18,859 bases of DNA, taken from a bacterium. Lineage in GTDB: Bacteria > Zhuqueibacterota > Zhuqueibacteria > Oceanimicrobiales > Oceanimicrobiaceae. The translations under genes were made by a program, and so were the position numbers. Where the stretch lies: NCBI GenBank assembly GCA_037446635.1, contig JBBIIG010000074.1, positions 1-18,859 on the forward strand, read 5' to 3'. Positions 2 to 18,143 of this stretch are shown here, in pieces (the first letter of the stretch is position 1; the number at the start of each line of letters is the position of its first letter). A model generated the notes under the pieces. That model was not told the DNA's origin. It made no database searches and was given only the letters and a program-made list of their open reading frames with translations.

Positions 2-1096
2 CTTTTTGCCGATGTGCACGTCGGCCCGCGCTGGCGAGTATTTAGTGAATTCAAAGTTGCCGGCATCACTGACAATGAGCTGCCCGCGCCGCCAACCGCC
101 CGCGATGAGCCAGACATTCAAAACCTGTTTGCGGAGGTTTGGTTTTTTAAGAAGGAAAGTACCCGAGTCGGTCTGCGCGGCGGCCGCCAGGAACTGCAAT
201 TCGGCAAACAGCGGCTGATCTCTCCCCTGGATTGGGTGAACACCCGGCGCACGTTTGACGGCGTGCGGCTGCTGGCCAATTTTCCAAAATGGAAACTCGA
301 TGGCTTTTTCACCTACGTGGTGCAGTTCGAGCCGGAAAAGCTTAATAGCGCCAATCACTCGCAGCCGTTTGTCGGCGTGTACCTTCAGCGCCCGTTGAAA
401 GGCAAAACGATATCGGCTTATTATTTGGGGTTGAAAGAGAACGATCCCATCATTGTCGATAGCCGCGGGATCGCGGGGGGCTTTTTTTACCACACCCTTG
501 GCGCGGCATTTGACGGCGCGGCCAAAAATTTTGATTGGACTAGCGAGGCCGCGTATCAGTTTGGGAGTTTTGGCGGGGACGACATTGCTGCTTATATGCT
601 CTCGCTGGAAGGCGGCTACACCGTCGCCAAGCTCGCAGTTAAGCCGCGGATCGCCCTCGGTTTCGATATCGCCTCCGGCGACAACGACCCTACCGATGAT
701 CAACAGCAGACCTTCAATCAGCTCTTCCCGTTGGGGCACGCATTTTTCGGTTGGGCTGATCAAGTGGCGCGGCAAAACATTCAAGCGCTCAGCCTGCTGC
801 TTTCGGCTAAACCGCACCCGCAGCTCGTTTGCAGACTCAACGCTTTTAAATTTTTTTTGGATGAAAGACGCGATGCGCTCTACAACGCGGCTGGCGCCCC
901 ATCTCGGCGCAGCCCCACCGGTTCAGCGGGCAAGGAGGTCGGCGCCGAAATCGATGCCGAGGTGACCGTTAATCTCAACCTCCACGCCAGTTTGGTGCTG
1001 GGTTACACTCGTTTTATGCCGGGTGATTTTATCAAAAATACTGGCGCGACTAAAACACACAATCTGTTTTATCTGATGGCGCCGCTGCGATTTTGA
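2..1096 (+). CDS. Alginate export (AlgE) family outer-membrane beta-barrel protein, 5' partial
   Basis: The frame is open from base 2 (LFADVHVGPRWRVF...), so the true start lies upstream of the window. Family-like segments are GRQELQFGKQRLISPLDWVNTRRTFDG and ASGDNDP...TFNQLFPLGHAFFG. There are alternating aromatic beta-strand patterns and a C-terminal Phe (LMAPLRF) typical of outer-membrane barrels. Confidence 0.8.
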   Translation, partial: LFADVHVGPRWRVFSEFKVAGITDNELPAPPTARDEPDIQNLFAEVWFFKKESTRVGLRGGRQELQFGKQRLISPLDWVNTRRTFDGVRLLANFPKWKLDGFFTYVVQFEPEKLNSANHSQPFVGVYLQRPLKGKTISAYYLGLKENDPIIVDSRGIAGGFFYHTLGAAFDGAAKNFDWTSEAAYQFGSFGGDDIAAYMLSLEGGYTVAKLAVKPRIALGFDIASGDNDPTDDQQQTFNQLFPLGHAFFGWADQVARQNIQALSLLLSAKPHPQLVCRLNAFKFFLDERRDALYNAAGAPSRRSPTGSAGKEVGAEIDAEVTVNLNLHASLVLGYTRFMPGDFIKNTGATKTHNLFYLMAPLRF

Positions 1097-1127
1097 AAGT
1101 TCATCTTTATTAAAATTAAAGGACGAT

Positions 1128-3221
1128 ATGTCGAAAATCATCATTCGCAATTTATCCATGATGTTTCCCGGCAAGGAAAAGGGCGCCGCCATTCCTGTAT
1201 TGGAAAATATCAACCTCGAGGTGCGCGAAGGGGAGTTGGTGTGCATCGTCGGGCCCTCTGGCTGCGGCAAGTCAACGATTTTGAATATTGTTGGCGGGTT
1301 TCTAAAAGCTAATGCCGGCGAGGTCTTGATTGATGGCGCGCCGGTCACAGGACCGGACTTGCGGCGGATTTTTATATTTCAAGAAAACGGCGTGTTTCCC
1401 TGGCTCACGGTTGAGCAAAACATCTGTTTCGGTTTGCTCGACAAATCCTCGCATGAACGCCAGCGCATCGTCAATCATTACATCGAAATGGTCGGGTTAA
1501 CCGGCTTTGAAAACGCCTTTCCGCGCGAGCTCTCCGGCGGCATGAAGCAGCGGGTGGAAATCGCCCGCGCGCTGGCCGCTAACCCGGATGTGCTCTACAT
1601 GGATGAGCCGTTCGGGGCGCTGGATTTTTTGACGCGGCTGCGCATGCGCGCCGAGCTCATTCAAATTTGGCAGCGGGAGAAGAAAACGGTTTTATTTGTT
1701 ACCCACGATGTCGAAGAAGCCGTGCAGCTCGCCGACCGGGTCGTGATTCTGAGTCAACGGCCAGCCACCATTCGCAGTATTGTGGAGGTCCGGCTGCCGC
1801 GGCCGCGCGACCTCGACTCCCATGCGTACCTGGAAATTCGCGATGAAATTTTCGACACCATGGGACTGGATCCTTCCGGAAGGAGCGCCGACGCCGAACG
1901 CGAGCGTGAAACTGTCAGCGCGTCGTTTGTGGGCGGCCCCATGCGCACGAAAACGCTGGATACGGATGTGCTCATCATCGGCGGCGGCCCGGCCGGATCC
2001 GTGCTGGGCGCTTATCTTGCCCACGCCGGCGTCCAACACATTATTCTGGAACAGGCGCACTATCCGCGCCCGCACGTCGGCGAATCACTGGTATGCTCGA
2101 CCACCCGCATTCTGCGGGAAATTGGTGTTCTGCCGGAATTGGAACGTGCGGAGTTTATTGTCAAACGCGGCACGTGCTGGGCCTCCTGGTTTGACCGAAA
2201 TGAAATCGATCTGCCCTTCGATCATGCGGATGATCTGAATTTTTCGTTTCATGTCGATCGCGCGCGCTTCGATGAGCTATTGTTGAAACATTGCTGTGAA
2301 AAGGGGTCGCGGGTGTTAACCGGGGTGCAGGTGGAAGCGGTGGAATTCAATCGCAAAGGCTTTGCCAGCGGCATTACCGCCAAAGTGGGCGAGTCCAAAT
2401 TTCGCCTGCATGGCAAGATGGTGGTGGACGCCTCCGGGCGCAAAGCGCTGTTGGGGCGTCAACTGCGGCTGATGAAATCCGATCCGGACCTGCGTCAGTT
2501 TGCCGTCCACAATTGGTTTATCGACGTCAATCATAGCCAGCGTGATAACGCCGATTTTTCTCATATTTATCTGCTGCCCATTCGCCGCGGCTGGGCCTGG
2601 GAAATTCCCATCACCAAAGAGATAACTTCGGTTGGAGTGGTAACCGACCGGGAAAATTTTGTCAAGGCTGGCGAAGATGTGCCGGCTTTCTTCCGCTGGA
2701 GTACCAGCTTGAATCCGTTGCTGGCCGAGCGCCTGAAGAATGCGGCGCCGCTCCGCGAGTTTCGCCTGGATGGCAATTATAGTTATATTATGGAACGCTT
2801 CGTCGGCGACGGCTGGCTGCTGCTGGGCGACGCCGCTTTTTTCATCGATCCGATTTTCGCTTCCGGGATGAGTGTGGCGATGCACTCCGCGAAATTTGCC
2901 GCGCAGGCCATTCCGGACGCCCTTGCCAAGAACGACGTCAGCGGCGCGGCTTTGAAAGAGTATGAAAGCAAATTGCTCGCGGGCGCACACGTGTGGCGAG
3001 AATTTGTCCGCTTGTTTTATAATGTCGCCCCGATTTTCAGCCGGGTCATTTCCGCAAGCGAGCATCGCAGCCTTGCGCTGCGCCTCTGTGAAGGGGATGT
3101 TTACGATCACTCTGCGACCCAAACCCTGGCGCAGTTGCAAAATGTGTTTGAACATATTCGAAACGACGCCCAGCATCCGCTGCAACCATTTCTGCGCGGC
3201 GCCTACGCCGGGGTTAATTAG
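1128..3221 (+). CDS. Fusion: NitT/TauT-type (SsuB/TauB/NrtD-like) ABC ATPase plus C-terminal FAD-dependent halogenase-like domain
   Basis: An AAAGGA RBS lies at 1118-1123. The N-terminal ~245 aa carry Walker A GPSGCGKST, Q-loop IFQE, signature LSGGMKQR, Walker B LYMDEPF, H-loop VTHD and the family tail LPRPRD. From about aa 272 there are GGGPAG, YPRPHVGES, a candidate catalytic Lys in FIVKRG, WAWEIP (2592-2609) and GDAAFFIDPIFASG. No stop separates the domains. Confidence 0.88.
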   Translation: MSKIIIRNLSMMFPGKEKGAAIPVLENINLEVREGELVCIVGPSGCGKSTILNIVGGFLKANAGEVLIDGAPVTGPDLRRIFIFQENGVFPWLTVEQNICFGLLDKSSHERQRIVNHYIEMVGLTGFENAFPRELSGGMKQRVEIARALAANPDVLYMDEPFGALDFLTRLRMRAELIQIWQREKKTVLFVTHDVEEAVQLADRVVILSQRPATIRSIVEVRLPRPRDLDSHAYLEIRDEIFDTMGLDPSGRSADAERERETVSASFVGGPMRTKTLDTDVLIIGGGPAGSVLGAYLAHAGVQHIILEQAHYPRPHVGESLVCSTTRILREIGVLPELERAEFIVKRGTCWASWFDRNEIDLPFDHADDLNFSFHVDRARFDELLLKHCCEKGSRVLTGVQVEAVEFNRKGFASGITAKVGESKFRLHGKMVVDASGRKALLGRQLRLMKSDPDLRQFAVHNWFIDVNHSQRDNADFSHIYLLPIRRGWAWEIPITKEITSVGVVTDRENFVKAGEDVPAFFRWSTSLNPLLAERLKNAAPLREFRLDGNYSYIMERFVGDGWLLLGDAAFFIDPIFASGMSVAMHSAKFAAQAIPDALAKNDVSGAALKEYESKLLAGAHVWREFVRLFYNVAPIFSRVISASEHRSLALRLCEGDVYDHSATQTLAQLQNVFEHIRNDAQHPLQPFLRGAYAGVN

Positions 3222-3252
3222 TTTAAAATTTCTAATAGCCAATGAGGCTCAA

Positions 3253-3501
3253 ATGGATATCAAAAATCAACTCAAAGAATTTATTGTTGCGGAATTTGGC
3301 GAAGACAAAGAGCTGCAAGCCCTGACGCCCGACGACGATCTCATCCGCCAGGGCGTCGTTGACTCGATGGGAGTCCTGCAGGTCGTCAATTTCATTGAAC
3401 AAACCTATGGAACCCAGGTCGCGGATGAAGAAATTACGGTGGAAAATTTTCGCACCATCAACGCCATCGCAAATCTGGTTTCTAAAAAAGCTCAAGTTTA
3501 A
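3253..3501 (+). CDS. Stand-alone acyl/peptidyl carrier protein (82 aa)
   Basis: A GAGG RBS at 3244-3247 precedes the ATG at 3253. The protein is small and acidic, with the phosphopantetheine-site motif GVVDSMGVL and the tail EEITVENFRTINAIANLV. The longer 2962 start in the ORF track overlaps the upstream gene and is not used. Confidence 0.9.
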   Translation: MDIKNQLKEFIVAEFGEDKELQALTPDDDLIRQGVVDSMGVLQVVNFIEQTYGTQVADEEITVENFRTINAIANLVSKKAQV

Positions 3502-3514
3502 TGTGAGATACATT

Positions 3515-5230
3515 ATGAGCGCGTCTCTACAAGCACGGCTATATGCGCAGCTCGAAAAGGCCCCGCATCGCCGGGCCCTGGCGTTTATCGACCCTAAAGG
3601 GCAGTTCTCCTGGCAATCGCTCGAACAGGTTTACCAGCGCGCTTGCGCTTACGGCAGCAAAATGCAGGAGCTGGGATACCGGCCGGGGGAAGTGTGTTTA
3701 CTGGTGCTGCCGAGTAACGAATTCTGCGCCGTGAGCGTACTGGCCACGCTGCTTTGTGGAGGCGTGCCGCTGCTAATGGCGCCGCCCATTTTGCAGGAGG
3801 GCTCCAATTCCACTCTCTTGCAAATTTTGAAAGGCATCCTGCAGCGCACGAACGCCAAACTGGTGATCGCCCATGAAACCCTCGAAAAAAATCGCGACGA
3901 ATTGCAGAGCATGAGCCCCCATACCATTTTTGTTTTTGGTGAAGGATGCTTTGCCTCGGCGACGGCCGGCGCGTTTTCGCCGGTTATGCCGGCTGAAACC
4001 GACACCTTCGCTTTGCAATTGACCTCCGGCACCACCGGCTTTCCGCGCATCTGCCGCTGGCAGCGGAAAAATCTTTTAGCGGCCCTGGATGGAATGGCGC
4101 TGGCCATGGGAGTGACGCGCGAGGACGTCTGCCTGAATTGGACGCCGCTTTATCATGATATGGGGTTGGTCAATAATTTTTTTCTCTGCCTTGCTTACGA
4201 GATTCCCCTCGCCATGCTGAGCCCCATCGACTTTGTTAAGCAGCCGGCGCGGTGGCTGCGGGCCTTGCACGATACCGGCGCAACCATCACCTGGTCGCCA
4301 AACTTCGGATACGCCATCACGGCTCAGCGGGTGCGCGAGTCCGAAATCGCAGGCGTTCGTCTGGATCACGTGCGATCGTTTTGGAACGCGGCCGAAAGGA
4401 TTCATTTCGAGACGGTGACGGCGTTCTATGATCGCTTTGCTCGTTACGGCGTCCGCCGTGAGGCGCTCAAAATGAATTTTGGCTGCGCCGAAAATATCGG
4501 CGGCGCCACCTTCACCGAGTTGGATAAACCGTTTGTGTACGAACGGGTGGATACGCAAAAGTTGCAGGTGGAGCGCCTGGCGCAGCCGGTCCCGCAAAAC
4601 GGCTACGATAAGCCAGCGATGTGGGTGGTGGGCGCCGGCCGACCCCATCCCTATCTGCAAATTAAAATTGCCGATGAAGATGGCAACTTTTTGCCCGATG
4701 GCCGGGTGGGCGAAGTGATGCTCGAAACCCCTTCCCGAATGAGCGAATACCTCGGTGAGCCAGAAGAAACCAGGTATGCCATAACCGGCAACCTGCTGCG
4801 GACAGGTGATCTCGGCTACCTCCGCAACGGTGAACTTTTCTGGACCGGGCGCGTGCGCGAACGCATCACCATTCGCGGGCGCAAAATCGACCCCAGCGAA
4901 TTTGAAAGCATCCTGCTCAAAATTCCCGATCTGCGCGCTGGTTCTTTTGCGGCGTTTGGCGTGGACGACTTGCGCCAGGGCACCGAGCGCATTGTTCTGG
5001 TTTCCGAGCTGCGGGAGCCAACCTCCAAGCCCTATTCCGAAATCGCCGCCGAAATTCAGGAGCAAGTCAATCAGGATTTAGGGGTGCCGGTCAGCGACAT
5101 CGTGCTGGTACCCAAAGGCGTGCTCACCAAAACCTCCAGCGGGAAACGCCGTCACCGTCACTTTCGCGAGCTCTATCTTGCGGACAACCTTGAATATCTG
5201 TACAAAAGCCTAAAGCCAGAGTATGCCTGA
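3515..5230 (+). CDS. Fatty acyl-AMP ligase (FAAL)-like adenylating enzyme
   Basis: Motifs are LQLTSGTTGFPR (P-loop), WTPLYHDMGL, SPNFGY, RTGDLGY and KTSSGKRR (catalytic Lys), plus a FAAL-type insertion between FGCAEN and VGAGRP. The start is placed at ATG 3515, just after the carrier-protein stop. Confidence 0.85.
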   Translation: MSASLQARLYAQLEKAPHRRALAFIDPKGQFSWQSLEQVYQRACAYGSKMQELGYRPGEVCLLVLPSNEFCAVSVLATLLCGGVPLLMAPPILQEGSNSTLLQILKGILQRTNAKLVIAHETLEKNRDELQSMSPHTIFVFGEGCFASATAGAFSPVMPAETDTFALQLTSGTTGFPRICRWQRKNLLAALDGMALAMGVTREDVCLNWTPLYHDMGLVNNFFLCLAYEIPLAMLSPIDFVKQPARWLRALHDTGATITWSPNFGYAITAQRVRESEIAGVRLDHVRSFWNAAERIHFETVTAFYDRFARYGVRREALKMNFGCAENIGGATFTELDKPFVYERVDTQKLQVERLAQPVPQNGYDKPAMWVVGAGRPHPYLQIKIADEDGNFLPDGRVGEVMLETPSRMSEYLGEPEETRYAITGNLLRTGDLGYLRNGELFWTGRVRERITIRGRKIDPSEFESILLKIPDLRAGSFAAFGVDDLRQGTERIVLVSELREPTSKPYSEIAAEIQEQVNQDLGVPVSDIVLVPKGVLTKTSSGKRRHRHFRELYLADNLEYLYKSLKPEYA

Positions 5231-7103
5231 TTTTGAATTAACCTGCGGTGCACCAGCATTCAGACAGTTAGAGCCTTATTCCCCTGAAATTTGCGGAAAT
5301 TTTGAAGTGCCCAGCCATTTCGGGCGGATGATTGCTTTTTGGGATAAACCGGAGTTTGTACCGGCTGATAAGTCCACCCACCTGCGGGACGACGACTACG
5401 TGGTAGGTCTGATTTACAAAGGTGTAGTGCGGGCCTACCCACTTTGGATTGTAGATAATTATCATGTGATTAACGACACCATAGCCGGAGATGCGATTGT
5501 GTTTGCCACCTGTGAGCGCTGCCAATCCGGGTCAGCTTTTCTCTCGCTGCTGGATGGGAAACGGCTCAAGTTCAGCGGCATGGGGATGTACAACGCCTCA
5601 TTAACCATGCTGAATCGCGCCGCGTTTGAACGCGATCGCAGCATCTGGCTGCATTATGAAGGGGTGGCGCTCCACGGCAAATTTGCCGGCAGGTTCTTGG
5701 CGCAAATTCCAACCTATCATACCGTCTGGAAGGACTGGCGCGCCGCTTATCCTCAAACCGAAGTGATGATCGAGCCAGAGTACCAATTTCATCGCGATGC
5801 GCGGCACGGGCACGGCCGCGACGAATATTTTGCGCGCCCCGGAATGGAGTTGCCTTTCATTCAAACCATCACCAGCGCCCTGGATAATCGTTACCCGGAA
5901 AACGAGATGGTGCTCGGCATCAACCTCGATTTGGGGGTAAAGGCATATCCCTTGCGCGAAGTGAAAATGAGCGGCAGCGTGGTCAACGACCATCTTGGCA
6001 GCCACCCAGTGGTGGTTTTGGCCGGACCGCGGCCGGAGCAGTTTACCACGGCCGCCTACTCTCGCGTCGTGGAGGGGCGGGTGCTTTCGTTTCGACATGC
6101 CGGCGACCGCTTTGCGGATCACGAGACCGAAAGCCACTGGACCATCGCGGGCGTGGCGACCCACGGGCCGCTGGCCGGGCGCCAACTGACGCCGCTGCGC
6201 TGGCAGTACGTGCGCTGGCACGCCTGGTTCTATCCCCATCGCAGCACCGAGCTGTATCGTTATGAAGGCGAACTGCCCGTTTATCCGAAGACGCCGGCCG
6301 GTTTAGACATTTCGCCTTTTCAACCGCTGTTGGAGGGATTATCTAAATTAGGGAAGCCGATGGTTGTAGAGGGCGCCATCATCAACTTGCGCTTGCCTCA
6401 CGAGGCCGAACAGGGCTTGGCGCTGCGAGTGGGTTCAGATCGGCTGAATCTTTATCTTTTTAACTCAGAAGCCGCGGCGGCGGATTACGTGGCGCTGCAG
6501 GGCGCCTGGTACTGTGTGCCGGTTGCCATCAAGGTGGAGCGGCGAAAATCCTACCGCGCCGGTAGATTTGTGCTGGAGTCTGACCCGGAGATTCAATATG
6601 CCGATGCAGCCCAAATCGTGCGCCTGCCGGATGCCGAGATTCGTTGGTCTGAGGTGGTAACCGACGAAAACCTCATTCGTCAGTGGAGTTTAGCCGTTGA
6701 CCATTTTTCCGAGGCGGGCGCCGGCCCTTTTGCCAGTCTGATTCAACATTTAAAGGACCGCGGCTATGATGTGGTCGAGACGGCATTTCTGCCGCACAGC
6801 CAACTGCGGGTGGGAGTGGTCAACGCGGTTTCGGCAACCATCAACGCCGACAACTTTGCCATTTATAAATGCGAGAACGACGAAGCGGGGGAGCGCGTGG
6901 CCTCCGAGTTATCGCATTGCCTCCGAATCGGCCGTTGGGTATTTCGTGCAGTACCCCTGGGAATGTACGAAGACCAGCGCTATGAAATCGGCCACTTGCC
7001 CGATGAAAAAATTCGCTGGTCAAAACTGATTGAGGATGAACGATTTTTGGCCGCCATTCAAACCTATTTAGTTTATCAAAAACCAATGATGCACGAGCAA
7101 TGA
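5223..7103 (+). CDS. DUF3179-like protein with CxxC motif and duplicated C-terminal module
   Basis: RAYPLWIVDNYHVINDTIAG..IVFATCERCQSG and a second KAYPL...VVNDHLG..PVVV, plus FADHETESHWTIAGVATHGPLAGRQL and WHAWFYPHRST, match my recollection of the DUF3179 pattern. It overlaps the ligase stop by 8 nt. Confidence 0.75.
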   Translation: MPDFELTCGAPAFRQLEPYSPEICGNFEVPSHFGRMIAFWDKPEFVPADKSTHLRDDDYVVGLIYKGVVRAYPLWIVDNYHVINDTIAGDAIVFATCERCQSGSAFLSLLDGKRLKFSGMGMYNASLTMLNRAAFERDRSIWLHYEGVALHGKFAGRFLAQIPTYHTVWKDWRAAYPQTEVMIEPEYQFHRDARHGHGRDEYFARPGMELPFIQTITSALDNRYPENEMVLGINLDLGVKAYPLREVKMSGSVVNDHLGSHPVVVLAGPRPEQFTTAAYSRVVEGRVLSFRHAGDRFADHETESHWTIAGVATHGPLAGRQLTPLRWQYVRWHAWFYPHRSTELYRYEGELPVYPKTPAGLDISPFQPLLEGLSKLGKPMVVEGAIINLRLPHEAEQGLALRVGSDRLNLYLFNSEAAAADYVALQGAWYCVPVAIKVERRKSYRAGRFVLESDPEIQYADAAQIVRLPDAEIRWSEVVTDENLIRQWSLAVDHFSEAGAGPFASLIQHLKDRGYDVVETAFLPHSQLRVGVVNAVSATINADNFAIYKCENDEAGERVASELSHCLRIGRWVFRAVPLGMYEDQRYEIGHLPDEKIRWSKLIEDERFLAAIQTYLVYQKPMMHEQ

Positions 7104-7121: not shown

Positions 7122-8849
7122 ATGAAAGATAATGAAGTGTTACCAGTAGATAGCTTGTATGATTGTGATGTCGCCATCTGTGGCGGCGGGTTGGCCGGGC
7201 TGACGTTGGCGCGCCAGCTCAAGCAGCAAATGCCGGGGTTGGCTATCGTCGTGCTTGACCGGCTCGCGCGCCCGTTGCCGGAAGCGGCGTTCAAAGTGGG
7301 CGAATCGACGACGGAAGCTGGCGCGTACTATCTGGCCGAAACCCTCGGGCTTAAAGATTATTTGAGCCGATCCCATCTCTACAAATTGGGCTTTCGCTTC
7401 TTTTTTGGCGACGCCCGTGGGCCATTTCACCAGCGCCCGGAGTTCGGTCTGTCGGAGTTTCCGGTGGTGCCGTCGTTTAATGTTGACCGCGGCTTACTGG
7501 AAAATGATTTGCGCGAGTTTGATGCCGAGATCGGGATCATCATGCTGGAAGGTTGTGCGGTGCGGGATATCGCCCTGAGCAACAGCGACGATCGCCACGA
7601 GATCAGCTTTGTTAATGGCAATAGCGCAGTCGAAGGAAAAATCCGCGCCCGTTGGGTGGTGGATGCCATGGGGCGCCGGCGCTTTATCCAAAAAAAGCTC
7701 AACTTGCTCAAACCCCTCGGCAAGGATTGCAGCGCGGTGTGGTTCCGTCTGCGCGGCCGTATCGATGTCAGCGATCTGGTGCCGCGCGAGGCGGAAGACT
7801 GGCACCGACGCGTCCCCAATAACAATCGCTTTTATTCAACCAACCACCTGTTGGGCCGCGGCTACTGGGTGTGGATCATCCCGCTGCCGTCGGACAGTAC
7901 CAGCGTCGGCATCGTTGCACTGGAGGAGATTCACCCATTTTCCGAATTCAACACCTATGAATCCGCGCGGCAGTGGCTGAAGAAATTCGAGCCGGTATTC
8001 GCGGGTTACATCGAAGGACGCGAGCCGCTGGATTTTATGTGCATGCGGAAATATAGCTACTCCTCGCGGCAGGTGTTTTCCTTCCAGCGCTGGGCATGCG
8101 TGGGTGAAGCCGGCACGTTTTCGGACCCGCTTTACGCGCCCGCGACCGATTTGATCGCCATCGCCAATTCGATGACCACCGAACTGATCCGTCTCGATTG
8201 TGCCGGAAAGTTGACCCCCGAGGTGGTGAGAAACTATAATTTTTCCATCATTGCGCTCAACGACGCACTCACGCGCAATATTCAGGTGGGCTACCCGTTG
8301 TTTAGCAACGCGGTGGTGGCGGCCGCCAAAATCATTTGGGATACGGTGGCCGGCTGGGCGCTGTTGGCGCCGCAGATCTACAACGCGGTTTTTGTTGACG
8401 ACGAAAAGCAAGCCAAAGTGCGCAAGGCCAAGGCCGGCTATTTTTTGCTGGCGCAAACCATGCATCGTTTATTCGTGGAATGGGATGCCAAGTCACGCGG
8501 ACGCGGTAGCTTTGAATTCATTGATTTTCTCAAAATTCCCCTGTTGGTGGAATTACGCCAGCGCAATTTGCAGGGTGGCAAATGCGCCCAGGAACTGATG
8601 GACGATCATCTTTTCAACATGGAGAAAATAGAGGAACTGGCGCTGGCTATTTTTTTGTTGGCGGTGGAGGACGTCATGCCGCAACGCCTCCATCAATTTC
8701 AACCGCCGGTGTGGTTAAATGCCTGGGGCCTCAGCTTACAACCGGAAAGATGGTCGACGGATAAGCTGTTTGAGCCCGCTACTCTGCCGCGCGACTGGAG
8801 CAACATTCGCGAACAAATCAGAAGTTTATTTCACATTGCTCAAAAATGA
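7122..8849 (+). CDS. FAD-dependent halogenase-like oxidoreductase (575 aa)
   Basis: Motifs are ICGGGLAGL, KVGESTTE, a candidate catalytic Lys in HLYKLGFRFFF, WVVDAMGR, YWVWIIPL (7866-7883 for WVWIIP) and GEAGTFSDPLYAP. Confidence 0.82.
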   Translation: MKDNEVLPVDSLYDCDVAICGGGLAGLTLARQLKQQMPGLAIVVLDRLARPLPEAAFKVGESTTEAGAYYLAETLGLKDYLSRSHLYKLGFRFFFGDARGPFHQRPEFGLSEFPVVPSFNVDRGLLENDLREFDAEIGIIMLEGCAVRDIALSNSDDRHEISFVNGNSAVEGKIRARWVVDAMGRRRFIQKKLNLLKPLGKDCSAVWFRLRGRIDVSDLVPREAEDWHRRVPNNNRFYSTNHLLGRGYWVWIIPLPSDSTSVGIVALEEIHPFSEFNTYESARQWLKKFEPVFAGYIEGREPLDFMCMRKYSYSSRQVFSFQRWACVGEAGTFSDPLYAPATDLIAIANSMTTELIRLDCAGKLTPEVVRNYNFSIIALNDALTRNIQVGYPLFSNAVVAAAKIIWDTVAGWALLAPQIYNAVFVDDEKQAKVRKAKAGYFLLAQTMHRLFVEWDAKSRGRGSFEFIDFLKIPLLVELRQRNLQGGKCAQELMDDHLFNMEKIEELALAIFLLAVEDVMPQRLHQFQPPVWLNAWGLSLQPERWSTDKLFEPATLPRDWSNIREQIRSLFHIAQK

Positions 8850-9835
8850 ACCAAAAGTTATTTACACCCAGCGATCTCTACTGGATGGTCGTCTGGCTGA
8901 TGACGAAACTCTATTATACCATCATCCCCATCGTCGCATTGGTGAAATTGGCGCGCTGGCAAGGGCGGCTCACGTCGTGGGCATTTAAACATCGTCATCT
9001 TGTTAAAAACAATCTCGTCTCTATTTTTGGCGATTCGATGACCGAAAAGGAAATTCGCGCCACCGTGCGGAGGCATTTTGGGTATCTGAGAGAATGTGAG
9101 CTGATGCTGAGGCTGCCAAAATTAAAAGGGTTTTCGCGGCCCGCGCACTGCCCCATAGAAGGGTTATCGCATCTGGAGCAGGCGCTTGCCAAAGGCAAGG
9201 GTGTCATCATCCTCGGTGCCCACTTCGGTTATTCGCGACTGATCAAACACTTTCTGGCCATGAGAGGTTACGACATAAAGGTCGTGGGCGCGCGCTCCAG
9301 CCAGAAAGTCAAAGCGGAAAAAAAAGAAAAAAAGCACATTCGATCCTACACCGCTTGGCGGCGATTCCTGTATCAGCGGTTGCGCGTTTCAACGGACATA
9401 ACCGATGAGCGGGATATCTTTGCGGATTTCAACGTGCGGCCGCTGCTGGAGGTCTTGAAGAAAAATGGTATTTTGATTATTGATGGCGATGCGCAGCATG
9501 CCGTCGGCTATGCGGTTTTACCCTTTTTGGGACGGCTCTATCCCTTTCCCACCGGCTTCATGACAGTGGCGATGGGAACGGGCGCGGCGGTTCTACCGGC
9601 GTTTGCGGTAGATGGTGCTGAGGGCTTTGGGATCAAAGTCATTATCGAACAGCCCCTATCTCTGGAGACGAATGGCGGCGCGGAGCAAGCCGTAACCAAA
9701 AACTTAGAAAGCTTCGTTCAAATCTTTGAATCGTATGTTAAGCGCTACCCCTATCTGTACCGAATCTGGAGCAAAGAAAACTGGTTCGAGCGCAAATTAG
9801 CGCAGGTGGATAAAGACCCGGCGGAGCGTTTTTAA
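8846..9835 (+). CDS. LpxL/HtrB-like (lysophospholipid acyltransferase family) acyltransferase, paralog 1
   Basis: ATGA overlap with the halogenase stop. It has an N-terminal hydrophobic helix, IEGLSHLEQALAKGKGVIILGAHFG, LPFLGRLYPFPTG, TGAAVLP and YVKRYPYLYRIW. Confidence 0.85.
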   Translation: MNQKLFTPSDLYWMVVWLMTKLYYTIIPIVALVKLARWQGRLTSWAFKHRHLVKNNLVSIFGDSMTEKEIRATVRRHFGYLRECELMLRLPKLKGFSRPAHCPIEGLSHLEQALAKGKGVIILGAHFGYSRLIKHFLAMRGYDIKVVGARSSQKVKAEKKEKKHIRSYTAWRRFLYQRLRVSTDITDERDIFADFNVRPLLEVLKKNGILIIDGDAQHAVGYAVLPFLGRLYPFPTGFMTVAMGTGAAVLPAFAVDGAEGFGIKVIIEQPLSLETNGGAEQAVTKNLESFVQIFESYVKRYPYLYRIWSKENWFERKLAQVDKDPAERF

Positions 9836-9850
9836 ATAAGGCAGAGCGAA

Positions 9851-11188
9851 ATGACTAACTTCAAAAGCATGCCGGAAGAGTGGCATTTTCCGCAATTGCG
9901 CCACATCAACGATGCCCAGCAACTGGCGCACCAGCTGCAGCCCCACGTCGGGGAGGCGCACGTTGCGGGCAGCGAAATCGACGAGGTGTATTATGAGCCG
10001 GGCGGCGGGTGCAAAATTTCGTTGCGCGTCCGCTTCAAAGTCGCCAGCGAGCGCATAGAGGAGCAAATCTACTACGGCCGGTTGTTCCCTAAAAAATGGA
10101 GAAACCCCGCGGAGATTTACGCCCGCGCCCAACGGCAAAATCATACCCCGCCGAAATTTGGCCCGCCGTTGATTTTTATTCCGGAATGGGAACTGGTGCT
10201 GTGGGCGTTCCCCAACGACCCCGGCTTGCCGGGCTTGCCGATTTTAGCGAACCCCGAGCGCGTGTTGGCCCTCGCTCAAGCCGCGCCCGAAAAATTCGGG
10301 CTGTCCCAGCCACCGATTTCCATTCGCGCCGAAATGACCAAGTACGTTCCCCACCGGCGCTGCGGCTATTTGTATCATTTCACACAACCCCACAACCACT
10401 CGGAGGCGGCGGTTTATGCGAAAGCATACCGCGATCGCAAAGGCAACGACGTATATGATTGCATGAAACAAATTTGGGAACATGAGGCCAGCCAGCGTGG
10501 GGAAGTTATCATCCCACAGCCCTACAGCTACGATACCGAACACAACATCCTTTGGCAGGAAGCGCTCACCGGCCGCCCCCTCTCGAAGCTGGCGGAGGCC
10601 CGCAAAGATTTACCGGCGGTAGCCCGCGAAGTGGGATGCCGTTTGGCGGCGCTGCATAATATGAGGTTGAATCTGCCGCAAGAGCTGACTCTTGAGTATC
10701 AAGTAAACAAGTTAGGGCAATATATCGCTGCGCTGGCAAAAGCATATCAACAATATGCCGAGCGCTGTAACATTCTTCATTCAAAATTACAGGCCGGAGC
10801 CGCGCAGTTGGAAGCCAGCCTTGTGGCGCCCATCCATGCCTCTTTCAAATTTAGCCATACTTTTTTGACCGATAGGGGGATCACTTTTATTGACTTCGAC
10901 GGCGCCAACCTGGGCGACCCGGGCCACGACGTAGGCAGCTTCGTTGCCTATTTATATAAAATGGAGGTCGAACAGAAGCTGGGGGCAGACGTTGTTGAGC
11001 AAACCGCTGCCAACTTTTGCGAGGCGTACAATCAAGCCGCGAACTCACCCATTTCGAAAAAGCGCAGCGACTGGTTTACCGCCAGCCACATCATCGTCAG
11101 TCATATTTATAAATCGCTCAAACGTTTGGATTCGCAACAACTCGGCCAATTCTTGCAAGTGGCGGAAGACCTGGTTGAAAAACTGTGA
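9851..11188 (+). CDS. Aminoglycoside phosphotransferase/choline kinase-fold protein 1 (catalytic Asp missing)
   Basis: Motifs are WAFPNDPGL, VYAKAY, IPQP, RLAALH, PIHASFKFSH (Brenner-motif position) and FIDFDGANLGDPGHDVGSF. Confidence 0.78.
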   Translation: MTNFKSMPEEWHFPQLRHINDAQQLAHQLQPHVGEAHVAGSEIDEVYYEPGGGCKISLRVRFKVASERIEEQIYYGRLFPKKWRNPAEIYARAQRQNHTPPKFGPPLIFIPEWELVLWAFPNDPGLPGLPILANPERVLALAQAAPEKFGLSQPPISIRAEMTKYVPHRRCGYLYHFTQPHNHSEAAVYAKAYRDRKGNDVYDCMKQIWEHEASQRGEVIIPQPYSYDTEHNILWQEALTGRPLSKLAEARKDLPAVAREVGCRLAALHNMRLNLPQELTLEYQVNKLGQYIAALAKAYQQYAERCNILHSKLQAGAAQLEASLVAPIHASFKFSHTFLTDRGITFIDFDGANLGDPGHDVGSFVAYLYKMEVEQKLGADVVEQTAANFCEAYNQAANSPISKKRSDWFTASHIIVSHIYKSLKRLDSQQLGQFLQVAEDLVEKL

Positions 11189-12606
11189 ACCGGCCTTTTC
11201 AAAACATCGTCGAGCGGTTGCTGCAGCAGCCGCAACTTCCTCAGCTCGCAACCGTCGTCAACGAAGAGCGGATGCACGAGTTGTTCGGCCAGCATCTGCA
11301 CGCCGCGGGGGTCGCTCAGGAATGGCGGGTGACGACCTGCAAAATTGAGCGAATCTACTTCAAACCCGCCAAACGCTGTTGGGTGTTGTATCGGTTAACG
11401 CTCTCGAACCGCGAGGGTGAGCAAGTGCAAGAATGGCTTTTTGGTAAAATCGCGCGCGATAGCAGCGATCTTGTCAAACATCTTGACTCCGGTCTCAAAA
11501 GAGATGGCGGCGATTCCCGTTGCTTAGATGTTTTGCCGGCGGTGAGTTTTTGGGAGAAGTTGGGGATGGAACTTTGGGTTTTTCCGTATGAGTCCGTTTT
11601 AAAGACTTTGCCGCAGGTCGTCGGCTCGAACTCCTTCGTCCCGCAAGTGGTGGCCAACCTTTCTGCGCTGGGTATTGCTAAAAGCGCAGCAGGGTGGCGC
11701 TGCAAACGGTTTCGCTTTGATCGCATCAAATACACGCCGGAGAAGCGCTGCGTTTTGCGTTTTCATATCGGTCTGGAAAATTCTAGGGACCAATCTCATG
11801 ACATCACGTTCTACAGCAAAACCTACAACGATTCTTTGAGTGGCAGTTATTTTACCATTCTGCGCTCTGCCCGCGAACAAATATCTGCCCAAACGACGGC
11901 GGTTAACGTGCCGAAACCCCTGGCTCATTTTGAGAACACGCGAACGACCTGGTACGAGGATTGGGGAGGCGCCGCGCTCATTGACCAATATTCCGAGTTG
12001 GAAAGCCCGCCGCTTTTTTCGAATATTGCCCATACGCTCGCGGCCCTCCACCGCTGTCGAATCAGCGGCCTGCGTCGTGGCCCGGATTTGGAGGATGTTT
12101 TCCAGCATTCCAGTGCCGACGCGCGGCAGGTTGCGCATCTCCTGCCAGGCTACGGGGATTGGATTGGCAAAATATTGGCCAGCTTGGAGCGCCGAAAAAG
12201 CCATTTGCAAAAGCAGGACGTCCCCTCGGTTCCGGTGCACGGAGCGTTTCGGCTCGAACAAATTCTGATCAAACAAAATAAGTTAGCCCTGGTGGACTTC
12301 GATGCCCTGGCCCTCGGCGATCCATTAGCCGACGTCGCCGAATTTATCGCCTCCTTGCATTACTTGCAATTAAGCCGGGGGGTGCCGTATGAGTTTCTCA
12401 AAACCGCTGCCGAACGTTTCTACACCAGCTATCGCGAGGCGGCGTCTTGGGCTTGTGATCGCGAACGCATCGGCTTCTACGCCTTATGCTTTTTTCTCAG
12501 CAAGATGTACATGATGATCAAACAACTGGATATCAACGCCCTGCAGCGGCTTGAGGTTTGGAATCCCCAAATTTTAAACGACTGGCTGCACTGGATATCA
12601 ACATGA
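11185..12606 (+). CDS. Aminoglycoside phosphotransferase/choline kinase-fold protein 2 (catalytic Asp missing)
   Basis: GTGA overlap with the previous stop. Motifs are WVFPYE, FYSKTY, VPKPL, TLAALH, PVHGAFRLEQ and LVDFDALALGDPLADVAEF. It is clearly paralogous to 9851-11188. Confidence 0.78.
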   Translation: MNRPFQNIVERLLQQPQLPQLATVVNEERMHELFGQHLHAAGVAQEWRVTTCKIERIYFKPAKRCWVLYRLTLSNREGEQVQEWLFGKIARDSSDLVKHLDSGLKRDGGDSRCLDVLPAVSFWEKLGMELWVFPYESVLKTLPQVVGSNSFVPQVVANLSALGIAKSAAGWRCKRFRFDRIKYTPEKRCVLRFHIGLENSRDQSHDITFYSKTYNDSLSGSYFTILRSAREQISAQTTAVNVPKPLAHFENTRTTWYEDWGGAALIDQYSELESPPLFSNIAHTLAALHRCRISGLRRGPDLEDVFQHSSADARQVAHLLPGYGDWIGKILASLERRKSHLQKQDVPSVPVHGAFRLEQILIKQNKLALVDFDALALGDPLADVAEFIASLHYLQLSRGVPYEFLKTAAERFYTSYREAASWACDRERIGFYALCFFLSKMYMMIKQLDINALQRLEVWNPQILNDWLHWIST

Positions 12607-13640
12607 AGGTAGCTTACGTTCGCACGCGCATGGGAAATGAAATGACGGCCACAAGCAGCTCATTTAAAATAATACTGGGCTTGCACCAGCGCCGCGCCGT
12701 TTCCGATTACGAAATCTGGCAGTTTACGGATCGCGCCGCCGCGGAAACTCCGGCGCCAGCGCCAGCGCTTAAACTTTTTCGATGTGACCACAACAACTTC
12801 GCCGATGATCTGACGCGCGAGGTTTATGAAAATGGCCAACCCGATATTCTCTGGGTGGATGGACGCGATACGCCGCCCTATATTCAACAAACCCTCGATC
12901 TCTGCCCGGCCAGCTTCAAGCTCATTTATTCGAAACACCCCCGGCCGTGGAACATCGAAAACTTAGAGCGCTATGATTTATGCCTGGTGGACGAGGACTG
13001 GCAAGTTGCCAAAGTCAAAAAACATTTTCCGCGAGTGAGCTGCTTCGTATGGGATAAGTTGGTGGATTACGAAACCACCTTTTACCCGCTAACATGTGAG
13101 AAGAGCTACGATCTGTGTTACGTGGCTAGCCTGCGCAAGGGGAAAAATCATGAACTGCTTTTTGAGGCCATTTCCAGAGTCAAGGACCGAACTCTGACCT
13201 GCGTGTGTGTGGGCGGCGACCTCAAAGGCAACCGCGAGTCCTGGGATCGCCTGGCGCCGCTGCAGCAAATGGTGGCGGATTTGGGGCTCTCCGTTCATTT
13301 TACTGGCCCGGTTAGCGCCCAGGAAGTGAATCGCTACATCAATTTATCGAAGATTGGCGTGATGTGTTCGATTGTTGATGCGGCGCCGCGCGCCATGTTG
13401 GAGTACATGGCCGCGGATGTGCCGGTACTGGTCAGCTCCGGCATGTTGGCCGGCGCACGCTACCTCGGCCCGGCCGCCGGAGTGGTCGCCGCGCCCAAAG
13501 AGTTTCATTTGGGGATGACGACGCTTCTGGATAACCGGAAAAACTATTCGCCGCGCGCCTATCTGCTTCAAAATTATTCGTTCGAAAAAGTGATAGCAAA
13601 ATGCATCACCATTTTGAGGCAGGCGGGATGCCAGGTTTAG
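12603..13640 (+). CDS. Glycosyltransferase, GT-B fold, GT4-like
   Basis: ATGA overlap at 12603-12606. C-terminal domain motifs are LCYVASLRKGKNHELL, VHFTGPVS and SIVDAAPRAMLEYMAADVPV (D/E-x7-E). Confidence 0.85.
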   Translation: MKVAYVRTRMGNEMTATSSSFKIILGLHQRRAVSDYEIWQFTDRAAAETPAPAPALKLFRCDHNNFADDLTREVYENGQPDILWVDGRDTPPYIQQTLDLCPASFKLIYSKHPRPWNIENLERYDLCLVDEDWQVAKVKKHFPRVSCFVWDKLVDYETTFYPLTCEKSYDLCYVASLRKGKNHELLFEAISRVKDRTLTCVCVGGDLKGNRESWDRLAPLQQMVADLGLSVHFTGPVSAQEVNRYINLSKIGVMCSIVDAAPRAMLEYMAADVPVLVSSGMLAGARYLGPAAGVVAAPKEFHLGMTTLLDNRKNYSPRAYLLQNYSFEKVIAKCITILRQAGCQV

Positions 13641-13660
13641 CAGCAGTTGCGAGGCCGACG

Positions 13661-14686
13661 ATGCCGCAGGAAGCTGAGATCATTTTTAAGCAGAAGCGAT
13701 TCAAACCCACTGATATTGTCTGGTCGTTGATCTGGCTGATAAAAAGGATCGCCTACTCGACGGTTCCGATACCGTTATTATTCTGGTTGGCAAAAGCTAA
13801 AGGTTTCATCGTATCGTTTGTTTCCTCAGAGCGCTTCGATGTCAAACGCAATCTGATTTCTGTTTACGGTTCAAACAAAAGCGAACGGGAAATTAACACC
13901 ATGGCCCGCCGCCATTTCGAATACTTGGAGCGGTTCGAGCTGAGTCAGGTGTGGCCGGATTTGCAGGGATTTGCGCACGCCCACCGCTGCCCGCTGGAAG
14001 GGCTGCCGTATCTGGAGGCGGCGCTCGCTCAGGGCAAAGGCGCGATTTTGCTGACCACCCACTTGGGTTACGGTCGGCTAATTAAATACTTTCTCAGAGT
14101 GAAAGGGTATCCGGTGCTGACCGTGGGCCCAAAAGACCCGAAAGATAAAAGTCATAAGATGACGAAATTTGCCTATTTCATTTATTACCGACTGCTCAAG
14201 GTGCCGGAATTTTCTCGTGAAAAAGAAAACGATCTCCCCCTCGCTTTGAATGTGCGGCCGCTGGTGCAAGCGCTAAAGAAAAATGAAATCCTTTTGCTCA
14301 CCGTGGATGGCAAGCGCAGCAGCCGGCTGATGGAGGTCAAGTTGCTGGGAAGGCGCACGGCCTTTGCCACCGGCAGCGTGAGGTTGGCGCACGAAACCGG
14401 CGCCACGGTACTGCCGGTTTTCGTGGTGGATTCAAATGATGGCTGGATTGGCATGAAGTCCATTATTGAACCCCCGTTGGAGCTCGAGCGCAGCGGCGAT
14501 GCGGAACAGGACGTTTGCCGACCTCTTGAACGATATGCTCAACTTTATGAAGATTATATTCATCGCTATCCCCATCTCTTTCATTGGCGCAAACGCGACT
14601 TCTTTTCCAAACGACGATTGAAGGCGCTCAAAGCCGATGTGGCGGATCGACTGAGTGGACAGTACAAAACAAAAATGACGCGATAA
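13661..14686 (+). CDS. LpxL/HtrB-like acyltransferase, paralog 2
   Basis: A GAGG at 13651-13654 precedes the ATG at 13661; ATG 13628 is an alternative start. Motifs are LEGLPYLEAALAQGKGAILLTTHLG, NVRPL, ATGSVRLAHETGATVLP and YIHRYPHLFHW. Confidence 0.85.
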   Translation: MPQEAEIIFKQKRFKPTDIVWSLIWLIKRIAYSTVPIPLLFWLAKAKGFIVSFVSSERFDVKRNLISVYGSNKSEREINTMARRHFEYLERFELSQVWPDLQGFAHAHRCPLEGLPYLEAALAQGKGAILLTTHLGYGRLIKYFLRVKGYPVLTVGPKDPKDKSHKMTKFAYFIYYRLLKVPEFSREKENDLPLALNVRPLVQALKKNEILLLTVDGKRSSRLMEVKLLGRRTAFATGSVRLAHETGATVLPVFVVDSNDGWIGMKSIIEPPLELERSGDAEQDVCRPLERYAQLYEDYIHRYPHLFHWRKRDFFSKRRLKALKADVADRLSGQYKTKMTR

Positions 14687-14703
14687 TTTACAATGTGAAG
14701 TCC

Positions 14704-14736
14704 TGTCGGGAACGCATACTGCGTTCCCGACATTTT
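14704..14736 (+). terminator. Perfect 13-bp hairpin followed by TTTT: intrinsic terminator or REP-like palindrome
   Basis: TGTCGGGAACGCA (14704-14716), loop TAC, TGCGTTCCCGACA (14720-14732), then TTTT. It starts 17 nt after the stop of paralog 2. Confidence 0.6.
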
Positions 14737-14774
14737 GCTTGCTATATTTGATTTACAATAGTCGAGTTATAACT

Positions 14775-15764
14775 ATGAACAGAACCTTCGAACCCAGCGA
14801 TCTCTATTGGGCTTTTGTTTGGGTGAGCAAGAAAATATTTTATTCGCTGGTTCCAATCCCATTTCTGTTTTTCTGGTGGAAAGTGAAGGGATATTATCGC
14901 ATGTTCGCTGCCGGTGAGCGGCAAATGGTCAAGCAGAATCTTCTCTCATTGTTAGGCGACAAAAAAAATGAGCGAGAAATTAAATCGATTATCCGGCGGC
15001 ACTTTGTGTTTCTGGAAACTCGCGGCCCCATTCATATTTTACCGAAATTAAAAGGGTTTGCCAAAGCGAAGCTCTGGCAAATTGAAGGGCTGCACCATTT
15101 GGAGGCAGCCTGTTCGCGAGGCAAAGGGGTGATTTTGCTGACCGGACATTTTGGCTACAGTGCCCTCATTAAATATATTCTTAACGCGTGGGGGTATAAG
15201 GCCCGCCGAGTTCGAGCGCAAAAAAGCAAAAAGTTGAAAACGTTGAAAAAAGAAAAACGGTGGATTGAAAACTCTTCTCGTTTTAGGAAGTCGATGTATG
15301 ACCGTTTTCATATAGACCCTGCTGGCTTTGACGACGACGATTTGGTGGCGGATTTCAATGTGCGGCCCTTAGTCCAGTGCCTGAAGAAAAACGAAATTTT
15401 ATTGTTTCTGGCTGATGCCTTACATGCCGCAAATTTTGTTGAACTGCCCCTGTTGGGCGAGCCCTATCCATTTGCAACCGGTTATATGAGCTTGGCGATA
15501 ATGACCGACGCCGCTATTTTGCCGCTCTTCGCCGTGGACCGTCTCGAAGAGTTTGGCGTGAAAATTGTGATTCAAAAACCGCTGGAGCTCGAGGGCCAGC
15601 GCGTGCAAAGTTTAGAGGCAATCCGGACCAATATTGAACGCTTTGTCCGGCTCTTTGAATCCTATTTAATCCAGTACCCTCATCTTTATAACATTTGGAC
15701 CAAAGAAGGCTGGTTTGAGAGCCGGCGCGCTCGTAGCCAAAAACCCCTGGTTGAACGGTATTGA
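14775..15764 (+). CDS. LpxL/HtrB-like acyltransferase, paralog 3
   Basis: The ATG at 14775 was chosen because MNRTFEPSDLYW aligns with MNQKLFTPSDLYW of paralog 1. Motifs are IEGLHHLEAACSRGKGVILLTGHFG, ADFNVRPL, LPLLGEPYPFATG and YLIQYPHLYNIW. Confidence 0.85.
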   Translation: MNRTFEPSDLYWAFVWVSKKIFYSLVPIPFLFFWWKVKGYYRMFAAGERQMVKQNLLSLLGDKKNEREIKSIIRRHFVFLETRGPIHILPKLKGFAKAKLWQIEGLHHLEAACSRGKGVILLTGHFGYSALIKYILNAWGYKARRVRAQKSKKLKTLKKEKRWIENSSRFRKSMYDRFHIDPAGFDDDDLVADFNVRPLVQCLKKNEILLFLADALHAANFVELPLLGEPYPFATGYMSLAIMTDAAILPLFAVDRLEEFGVKIVIQKPLELEGQRVQSLEAIRTNIERFVRLFESYLIQYPHLYNIWTKEGWFESRRARSQKPLVERY

Positions 15765-15802
15765 ATCAAAAACATATTTACTAAATTCATGCAGGATAAA
15801 CC

Positions 15803-17365: not shown

Positions 17366-17396
17366 TCGATAACTATAACTATAAAAGGAAACCTAT

Positions 17397-18143
17397 ATGA
17401 GCCTTCACCGCGATCAACAAAAACAGGCGAGGCATCGAGAGGATGATATTTTAAAAATCGAGCCATCGCAAAACCGTCAGTACTTGCTCATCCTCGGCGC
17501 TCCGCGCTCGGGAACAACTCTGCTCACGGCCATGATTGGGCGCCACGACGAAGTGGCGCTGCTGGTTGAAGACAAGCGGCTCGCCTTCGCCAAAATTGTA
17601 AGCAAAACCGTGGTCGGTAACAAGCTGTGCGTTCCCAGCCAGATTGAATTCGAAAATAAATGGGATGAACGGTATGCCCGCTTCTCGAAATATTCCATTG
17701 AAAAATATTTAGAGCTCCCCAATTTTCACGCGATTCTTATCGTGCGCAACGGCAACGACGTGGTCAGCTCCATCATGACGCGGGCGGATAAATCTTTGGA
17801 AGTGTCATCCTATTACTGGACGAGAGCCATCGAGATCATGTATGAACTAAAGCGCCGTCTCGAAAGCGCGGCGCTGGTGATCTCTTATGAAGGCCTGCTC
17901 GCCAACCCCGAGGGCCAGATGAAACGAGTGGCGAAATTTCTTGGGCTTGACTATCAACCCAAGATGCTGGACGGCTACAAGTACAACCCCATTTATCCGG
18001 AATATTCCAGCATCGATGTGAGCAAGGCCAAACCGAAAACTGAAACGCCGGCGCCGATCAACTTGCAGCAAAGCCATCCCGAGATTTGGAAAAAATACTT
18101 AGAATTAAATAACAGCGCGTCAGGGTTGCATGAGAAATTTTAG
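17397..18143 (+). CDS. PAPS-dependent sulfotransferase family protein
   Basis: An AAAGGA RBS lies upstream of the ATG. Motifs are the 5'-PSB loop ILGAPRSGTTLL, the 3'-PB motif IVRNGNDVVSS and ISYEGLLANP...VAKFLGL. Confidence 0.85.
   Translation: MSLHRDQQKQARHREDDILKIEPSQNRQYLLILGAPRSGTTLLTAMIGRHDEVALLVEDKRLAFAKIVSKTVVGNKLCVPSQIEFENKWDERYARFSKYSIEKYLELPNFHAILIVRNGNDVVSSIMTRADKSLEVSSYYWTRAIEIMYELKRRLESAALVISYEGLLANPEGQMKRVAKFLGLDYQPKMLDGYKYNPIYPEYSSIDVSKAKPKTETPAPINLQQSHPEIWKKYLELNNSASGLHEKF

Follow-up and report, generated by a model that had tools for sequence, protein, structure and literature searches.

Why should the motor of an importer carry a halogenase? The question arises from an 18,859-nucleotide stretch of bacterial DNA (GenBank assembly GCA_037446635.1, contig JBBIIG010000074.1; Zhuqueibacterota, Oceanimicrobiaceae), here called the window, in which one gene encodes an ATP-binding cassette (ABC) importer ATPase of the NitT/TauT type joined to a flavin-dependent halogenase. 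Its 697 residues are read from a single open frame at 1128-3221 on the + strand, where Pfam places ABC_tran at residues 25-162 (E 1.5e-31) and Trp_halogenase with FAD_binding_3 at residues 278-633. An earlier account made from the letters of the DNA, the sequence-only reading, had proposed just such a frame with complete ATPase and halogenase motifs, and all of these lie where it had put them. The parts of the gene are:

1118..1123, + strand: Shine-Dalgarno-like AAAGGA ahead of the ATG at 1128 (sequence)
1128..1868, + strand: NitT/TauT-type ABC ATPase domain, residues 1-247 (Pfam, motifs, solved relatives)
1869..1955, + strand: variable linker, predicted disordered, residues 248-276, containing the non-conserved Met at 1941
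1956..3221, + strand: flavin-dependent halogenase domain, PltA/Mpy16/ChlB4-like, residues 277-697 (PDB matches, motifs)
2163-2165, 2592-2609 and 2841-2867, + strand: halogenase motifs K346, WxWxIP and FxDPxFxSG, respectively (sequence)

The ATPase half is intact in Walker A (GPSGCGKS, 42-49), Q-loop (Q85), signature (LSGGM, 135-139), Walker B (D159/E160), D-loop and H-switch (H193). Its best-ranking solved relatives are CmpD and NrtD, structural neighbours of all proteins here being drawn from sequence searches, and its top NCBIfam matches, SaoA, NtrCD and TauB, each score under their cut-offs. The halogenase half finds PltA (5dbj, E 2e-92), 5buk (1e-86) and ChlB4 (5e-86) as its best PDB matches, and K346 aligns with the second lysine of the PltA sequence FPKKFG, the catalytic lysine of PltA, K73. 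It further carries GxGxxG (285-290), WxWxIP (489-494) and FxDPxFxSG (572-580), answering to the GxGxxG, WxWxIP and FxxPxxSxG of variant B halogenases as defined in PMC8407142, a table of which gives 5buk as Mpy16. We consider the domain probably active. PltA, Mpy16 and ChlB4 thus share with it the three motifs, the lysine column and, as described below, PltE/F/L-like partners in the cluster, but those enzymes stand alone whereas this one is tethered to a transporter, and Cys323 takes the place of a proline in PltA. In an AlphaFold model built with 101 homologues (mean predicted local distance difference test (pLDDT) 88.5, predicted template modelling score (pTM) 0.63) both domains are confident, and residues 249-266 and 269-275 fall below pLDDT 50, in agreement with a linker of about 27 residues, where the sequence-only reading had estimated 25-30. 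A complex prediction for the two domains scored 0.00 and was weighed neither for nor against any reading.

The fusion is, to near certainty, real. A homologue search gave a family of at least 120 proteins; among the best 120, query included, both Pfam domains are present in all 119 others, at 51-77% identity and 86-100% query coverage. The architecture is therefore a family trait, common to many uncultured bacteria, and not an artefact. A second assembly holds a 697-residue member of the same 90% cluster, and a relative's contig (about 91% identity, from a freshwater-labelled run) covers window positions 900-3400, its alignment listing no indel within the linker. The internal ATG at 1941 has no Shine-Dalgarno-like stretch ahead of it, as had been noted from the letters, and its methionine, M272, is not conserved. 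Two mis-joined genes or a one-off read-through are ruled out by the homologues, the relative's contig, the second assembly and the non-conserved M272, which answers the two doubts that the sequence-only reading had itself raised, an isolated fusion and a stop or frameshift in the linker. No RNA dataset was listed as holding the gene. Across the 120 homologues the ATPase motifs are kept in 117-120, and the span corresponding to residues 245-276 varies from 19 to 91 residues (median 35). The position of Cys323 (2094-2096, after the GESL motif) is Cys in 54 and Tyr in 46 of the 120, and Pro in PltA-type enzymes. Database names for these homologues are automatic two-domain labels only. Where the relatives' hosts are named, they belong to the Acidobacteriota, Verrucomicrobiota, 'Cytophagia' and Thermodesulfobacteriota. 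In 13 of 17 GTDB loci compared for architecture both domains share one frame (L001-L012 and L014, L003 ending at its contig end); the frame is broken in L013 and L016, L015 is unfused and L017 is cut before the ATPase. At L002 (4990-6197), L013 and L016 halogenase and transporter genes are split or frameshifted, which may reflect assembly errors or decay.

An extra C-terminal domain on an ATPase of this subfamily recalls NrtC and CmpC of the cyanobacterial NrtABCD and CmpABCD systems. Their extra domains are related to binding proteins by search, as the sequence-only reading had stated, whereas here the addition is a flavoenzyme and the window system has a single ATPase gene. Membership is rejected: the C-terminal half has the halogenase fold, and the NCBIfam ntrCD model (TIGR01184) gives 229 bits against a cut-off of 291.8. 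According to PMC13287603 the NrtC/CmpC domain is nitrate-binding and regulatory, and that of CmpC locks the ATPases until nitrate binds. By analogy the halogenase fold might act mainly as a cytoplasmic sensor, of halide or of flavin redox state, gating the ATPase. Such a role would suit the drift of substrate-side motifs in the Acidobacterial branch (K346 to R in 6, D574N in 3 and F572 altered in 10 of the 120) and the existence of fusions without cluster genes (L010-L014). Yet the catalytic lysine is kept in 114 of 120 homologues and W489/W491 are invariant, linker length and sequence vary, and many copies of the same importer lack the halogenase domain altogether; a sensor is decidedly improbable.

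The fused gene is the last of a cassette. In relatives its order is binding protein, permease, an optional Alginate_exp porin (4 of 17 GTDB loci; the permease is present in 16) and ATPase-halogenase. In this genome the first genes form the end of another contig, C91 (=L018). Positions 544-1576 of a 9122-bp relative contig correspond to C91 11348-12363 and its 2485-4979 to window 900-3400; since this one contig covers both the C91 end and the window start, C91 adjoins the window with a gap of about 10 bases. The remaining cassette genes are:

C91 10215-11261, TGA at 10374: predicted selenocysteine-containing binding protein (C91 matches)
C91 about 11261-12022: permease (C91 matches)
2..1096 of the window, + strand: 3' part of an outer-membrane, anion-channel-type Alginate_exp porin (PF13372, E 2.8e-78), its 5' end on C91

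The operon therefore holds the cognate BPD_transp_1 permease and NMT1/SsuA-type binding protein of a NitT/TauT importer. The interpretation offered by the sequence-only reading fared unevenly. Tethering of a halogenase-type domain to the ATPase of an importer is upheld, the cognate permease, binding protein and porin exist and the link to halogenase loci recurs; an anion or halide as the cargo, channelling, and coupling of transport to the state of the enzyme are proposals.

Gene callers stop at the TGA, so the link to the binding protein has gone unseen in annotations. In the fused group, all binding proteins that were called short contain an in-frame TGA, within the motif P-V-T-U-H-L-T/M-C; it aligns with a cysteine of homologues (Cys in L014, L015 and all 80 metagenome loci sampled) and sequence is conserved on both flanks. 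The permease frame has no such TGA. SelA, SelB and SelD, all over cut-off, are encoded in the genome together with tRNA-Sec, and the SelD gene contains a TGA of its own. Among genomes with TGA forms, 11 of 12 have a SelA over cut-off (none was found in G170, a genome of unstated completeness), as against none of three Cys-type genomes tested. A hairpin starts about 13-16 nt after the UGA in all seven TGA forms folded (z +0.5 to -3.7), and mean folding z is -1.30 for 12 TGA forms against -0.46 for 67 Cys forms (p 0.03, the sequences being related and GC higher). Under consensus folding the hairpin shows no covariation (compensatory pairs 0 of 14), and given this and the spread of z a selenocysteine insertion sequence (SECIS) after the UGA is weakly supported. 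The C91 protein is thus predicted to contain selenocysteine (Sec) in a U-H-x-x-C motif. An unfused Acidobacteriota clade at greater distance (G279, G381, G243, G215) has TGA forms too. The binding protein is found in 4 of 167 genomes of the window's phylum and in none of 20 others of its family, a patchy distribution; a plasmid collection gave distant binding proteins only, at under 33% identity among the best 30 of 44.

T53, C/U54, C58, H121, R122, D123 and C227 are invariant in all 122 full-length binding proteins, and H55 is kept in 121. The closest solved binding protein, 3un6 of Staphylococcus aureus, is a distant match (E 2e-20) in which His, His-His-Glu and Cys-Cys stand opposite U/C54, H121-R-D and C227 of the pocket; its first position is thus occupied by His and not by Sec/Cys. 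3un6 is zinc-bound, and is not known to have a halogenase link. The Sec/Cys-His-Cys pocket appears to resemble a metal site more closely than it does the oxyanion pockets of NrtA and SsuA. When modelled (pTM 0.77), the Cys form shows a membrane helix at its N terminus.

A Sec-bearing binding protein in a NitT/TauT-group importer also invites comparison with SAO (SaoA/SaoP/SaoB/SaoX), a described selenoprotein ABC importer whose SaoA and SaoP are the top NCBIfam matches of our ATPase and permease. The scores, SaoA 245 of 360, SaoP 180 of 295 and, for L001, SaoX about 59 of 300, are all under cut-off and membership is rejected. The systems differ in that the window motif is U-H-x-x-C and not CU or UxP, the permease is without Sec, the hosts differ and a halogenase is fused; no SaoL, SaoT, SaoE or SaoC genes were seen with the window system.

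This pocket is the ground for a different account of the importer, in which its cargo is a soft metal (Cu or Zn) or a complex of metal and product, and the halogenase makes a metal-binding product or merely sat next in the operon. The invariance of the T-C/U-H-x-x-C, H-R-D and C227 residues aligned to the His, His and Cys of 3un6 favours it, as do the many importer copies without a halogenase and the interpretation of Sec/Cys motifs in SAO binding proteins as metal ligands (bioRxiv 10.1101/2022.07.06.499078). It is countered by the scanned neighbours, among which no SCO, cupredoxin or copper chaperone appeared (one ZnuA/ABC-3 pair lies near L124), and by the differing products of the host clusters. 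Flavin halogenases, moreover, require no metal. We judge metal import unlikely, though still a serious candidate.

Our preferred answer, held tentatively, is that the importer most likely supplies halide to the tethered halogenase and its cluster. An anion would pass the outer membrane through the co-encoded porin. The membrane-anchored Sec binding protein would hold a soft metal through Sec54, His55, Cys58, His121 and Cys227, residues that are themselves observed, and the open metal site would capture halide. The permease and two ATPase domains, their motifs intact, would carry it inward, and the halogenase, on its flexible linker near the cytoplasmic exit, would use FADH2, O2 and halide to act on pyrrolyl-S-peptidyl carrier protein (PCP) from the PltE/F/L-like genes of C91, where motifs and gene set are observed and activity and substrate are presumed. 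CmpA binds bicarbonate via calcium, and a metal-held anion site of that kind would accommodate both the metal-like pocket and the halogenase link.

The argument for halide lies in the company the cassette keeps. One cassette type serves clusters of varied chemistry: pyrrole-PCP (L001, L002, L137), nonribosomal peptide synthetase (NRPS) genes with a Trp halogenase (L006), NRPS genes with another halogenase-like gene (L005) and NRPS genes with 4-hydroxyphenylpyruvate dioxygenase (HPPD)-like genes (L009). Clusters differing in organic chemistry suggest a shared need, such as halide, and not one organic precursor. This bears directly on the idea that the ligand retrieved by the importer is organic or organohalogen, be it pyrrole-2-carboxylate, an electrophilic halogen species or some halogenated product, and that it passes to the fused enzyme, Sec/Cys being a nucleophile or halogen-bond acceptor. 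The fold family does bind organic anions (SsuA/TauA matches), joining an enzyme to the ATPase of an importer would be a natural way to import and modify a compound, and Sec-halogen chemistry is familiar from deiodinases; but the scaffolds of host clusters differ whereas identity among their binding proteins is nowhere under 54%, and halogenases of this lineage depend on a carrier protein, PltA, Mpy16 and ChlB4 being variant B in PMC8407142. We find an organic cargo quite improbable. Halide supply also fits the recurrence of the ATPase-halogenase link, seen in a separate fusion (P0278), in a Verrucomicrobia subgroup whose halogenase, of the same clade, is carried by a distant importer (binding protein 20-21% identical) and in unfused importers beside halogenases (L096, L138). 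Both binding-protein-bearing Verrucomicrobiota genomes have halogenases, against 19 of 251 overall (n=2, one being the search centre).

Several observations weigh against halide. In a metagenome sample taken from the binding protein first (the best 80 of 341 loci, all Cys-type), 47 loci have an unfused ATPase and, within the stretch retrieved, no halogenase; 3 are fused, 1 has an adjacent halogenase and 29 are not judgeable, so that 47 of 51 judgeable loci lack one; many of the 47 are near-copies in a single priA context. In the distant Acidobacteriota clade (40-48% identity) a PltA-like match is found in 5 of 15 genomes against 80 of 301, no genome-level enrichment (G199 left out, at most five candidates scored per genome); four of the 15 loci adjoin a divergent halogenase-like gene that the PltA-like search missed. 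The fused loci L010-L014 and L016 have no carrier-protein or cluster genes, the pocket aligned to 3un6 would suit a metal cargo too, and halide rarely limits halogenases.

Could the joining be of no consequence, a tolerated fusion of neighbours that fixes co-expression only, importer and enzyme being functionally unrelated? Quick trees were made of both halves. In the halogenase tree the main-family fusions, the contig-cut L017a included, form one clade (SH-aLRT 98), with the Verrucomicrobia subgroup nested inside. In the ATPase tree fused and unfused proteins are interleaved in the Cys branch, and a single clade of all fused ATPases is rejected (approximately unbiased (AU) test, p=0.004; 30 of 61 rows, LG+G4), from which it follows that the fusion was repeatedly lost or regained; such ease of loss or gain speaks for a neutral joining. 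On the other side, several phyla have retained the fusion, at 51-77% identity, unfused importers adjoin separate halogenases, and P0278, in a cluster of two members, joins another ATPase to another halogenase lineage (37% identical to that of the window). A neutral joining seems to us very improbable. The Verrucomicrobia subgroup is 39-44% identical to the window proteins in the ATPase, 20-26% in the binding protein, which nevertheless retains the Cys, His and Cys of the pocket, and 48-50% in the halogenase; these identities and the two trees suggest a module swap. Holding the subgroup ATPases with their halogenase sisters is not rejected (AU p=0.23, on a long branch). In a distant clade (L121-L129) the gene order is permease-ATPase-permease-binding protein, and FG-GAP-family neighbours occur at eight of the loci L121-L137.

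The surrounding genes bear on what the fused enzyme may act upon:

C91 5789-10187: acyl-CoA dehydrogenase (ACAD), adenylation (A) domain, PCP and second halogenase, upstream of the binding protein
3253..3501, + strand: acyl carrier protein (PF00550)
3515..5230, + strand: fatty acyl-AMP ligase-like (FAAL-like) enzyme (NF006624 top match, under cut-off)
5223..7103, + strand: DUF3179 protein (PF11376) with a CxxC motif (sequence)
7122..8849, + strand: third, divergent halogenase-like flavoprotein (Trp_halogenase 29 bits, cut-off 21)
8846..18143, + strand: tailoring genes, namely three LpxL-like acyltransferases, two APH-like kinases, a GT4 glycosyltransferase, a secreted protein and a sulfotransferase (Pfam)

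The carrier protein and loading enzymes expected around a variant B halogenase are thus present on C91, and absent in some fused relatives. The ACAD is a PigA/RedW-like dehydrogenase (455 of 500 bits), and the top single-domain match of the A domain is the L-proline:PCP ligase 6o6e. Among the cluster's three halogenase-like proteins the fused one is nearest to PltA (E 2e-92, against 1e-40 and 4e-12), and its closest stand-alone relatives, at 44-46% identity, adjoin the same ACAD type in L139 and L141. We lean towards pyrrolyl-PCP as the substrate of the fused halogenase in this genome. The PltE/F/L-like genes and the downstream tailoring genes together point to a lipid, surface molecule or surface polymer bearing a halopyrrole as the likely product of the cluster. 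The third halogenase-like protein has halogenases as its PDB matches and is 45% identical to a halogenase-like gene adjoining the fusion in L005. A flavin reductase gene lies elsewhere in the genome, as does a further halogenase-like gene (G000:C17:1055-2251).

The block of acyltransferase, kinase, GT4 and sulfotransferase genes, with two ABC exporters, spans window 8846-18783 and L018:3-5773 and is common to L008 and partly to L002. The DUF3179 protein of the window carries Cys in its CxxC and had no homologue among the related loci searched; Table 1 of PMC13188914 counts DUF3179 among the selenoprotein families (UxxC/T). A small membrane protein (about 125 residues) lies convergent after the cassette in several unrelated contexts, at L015 (10397-10780, - strand) and beside the cassettes of L016, L017, L024, L028, L057, L082 and L096; its Atlas matches are hypothetical clusters only. 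Related cation/H+ antiporters are encoded between importer and halogenase at L138 (10834-12141), within the cassette at L044 (6603-7898) and between two halogenases at L141 (5391-6662). None of that kind was found by tblastn in the window's genome, and a literature search for antiporters adjoining halogenases, PMC6100412 included, gave nothing relevant. A pattern for the vanadium haloperoxidase motif had no match near the cassettes.

A full-text search, most subscription papers and supplements lying outside it, found no paper on an ATPase-halogenase fusion or a halide ABC importer, and the fused halogenases known from PMC8407142 are joined to ThiF (KrmI) or to a flavin reductase (XanH), not to an ABC ATPase. 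The cassette is best described as a genuine variant, so far uncharacterised, of the NitT/TauT importers and the variant B halogenases; it would be new in category only if halide import were shown. Should it be so, it would be the first dedicated ATP-driven halide importer, in which a Sec-metal receptor takes Cl-, Br- or I- and the ion passes to the halogenase borne by the motor, the module being portable among unrelated clusters, a proposal on which we are more doubtful than on the cargo itself. The cassette is a directly testable candidate bearing on how cells supply halide to intracellular halogenases and how Cl, Br or I is chosen in vivo, with a binding protein and a halogenase domain as its soluble parts. 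Among the 119 prokaryotic selenoprotein families of the 2026 inventory (Table 1 of PMC13188914) the Sec binding proteins are BtuF, SaoX and SaoB, and a U-H-x-x-C binding-protein family is not listed, so the family described here would add to that inventory. Whatever the cargo, it is unusual for an importer ATPase to bear an enzyme, and with halogenases such a fusion has arisen more than once.

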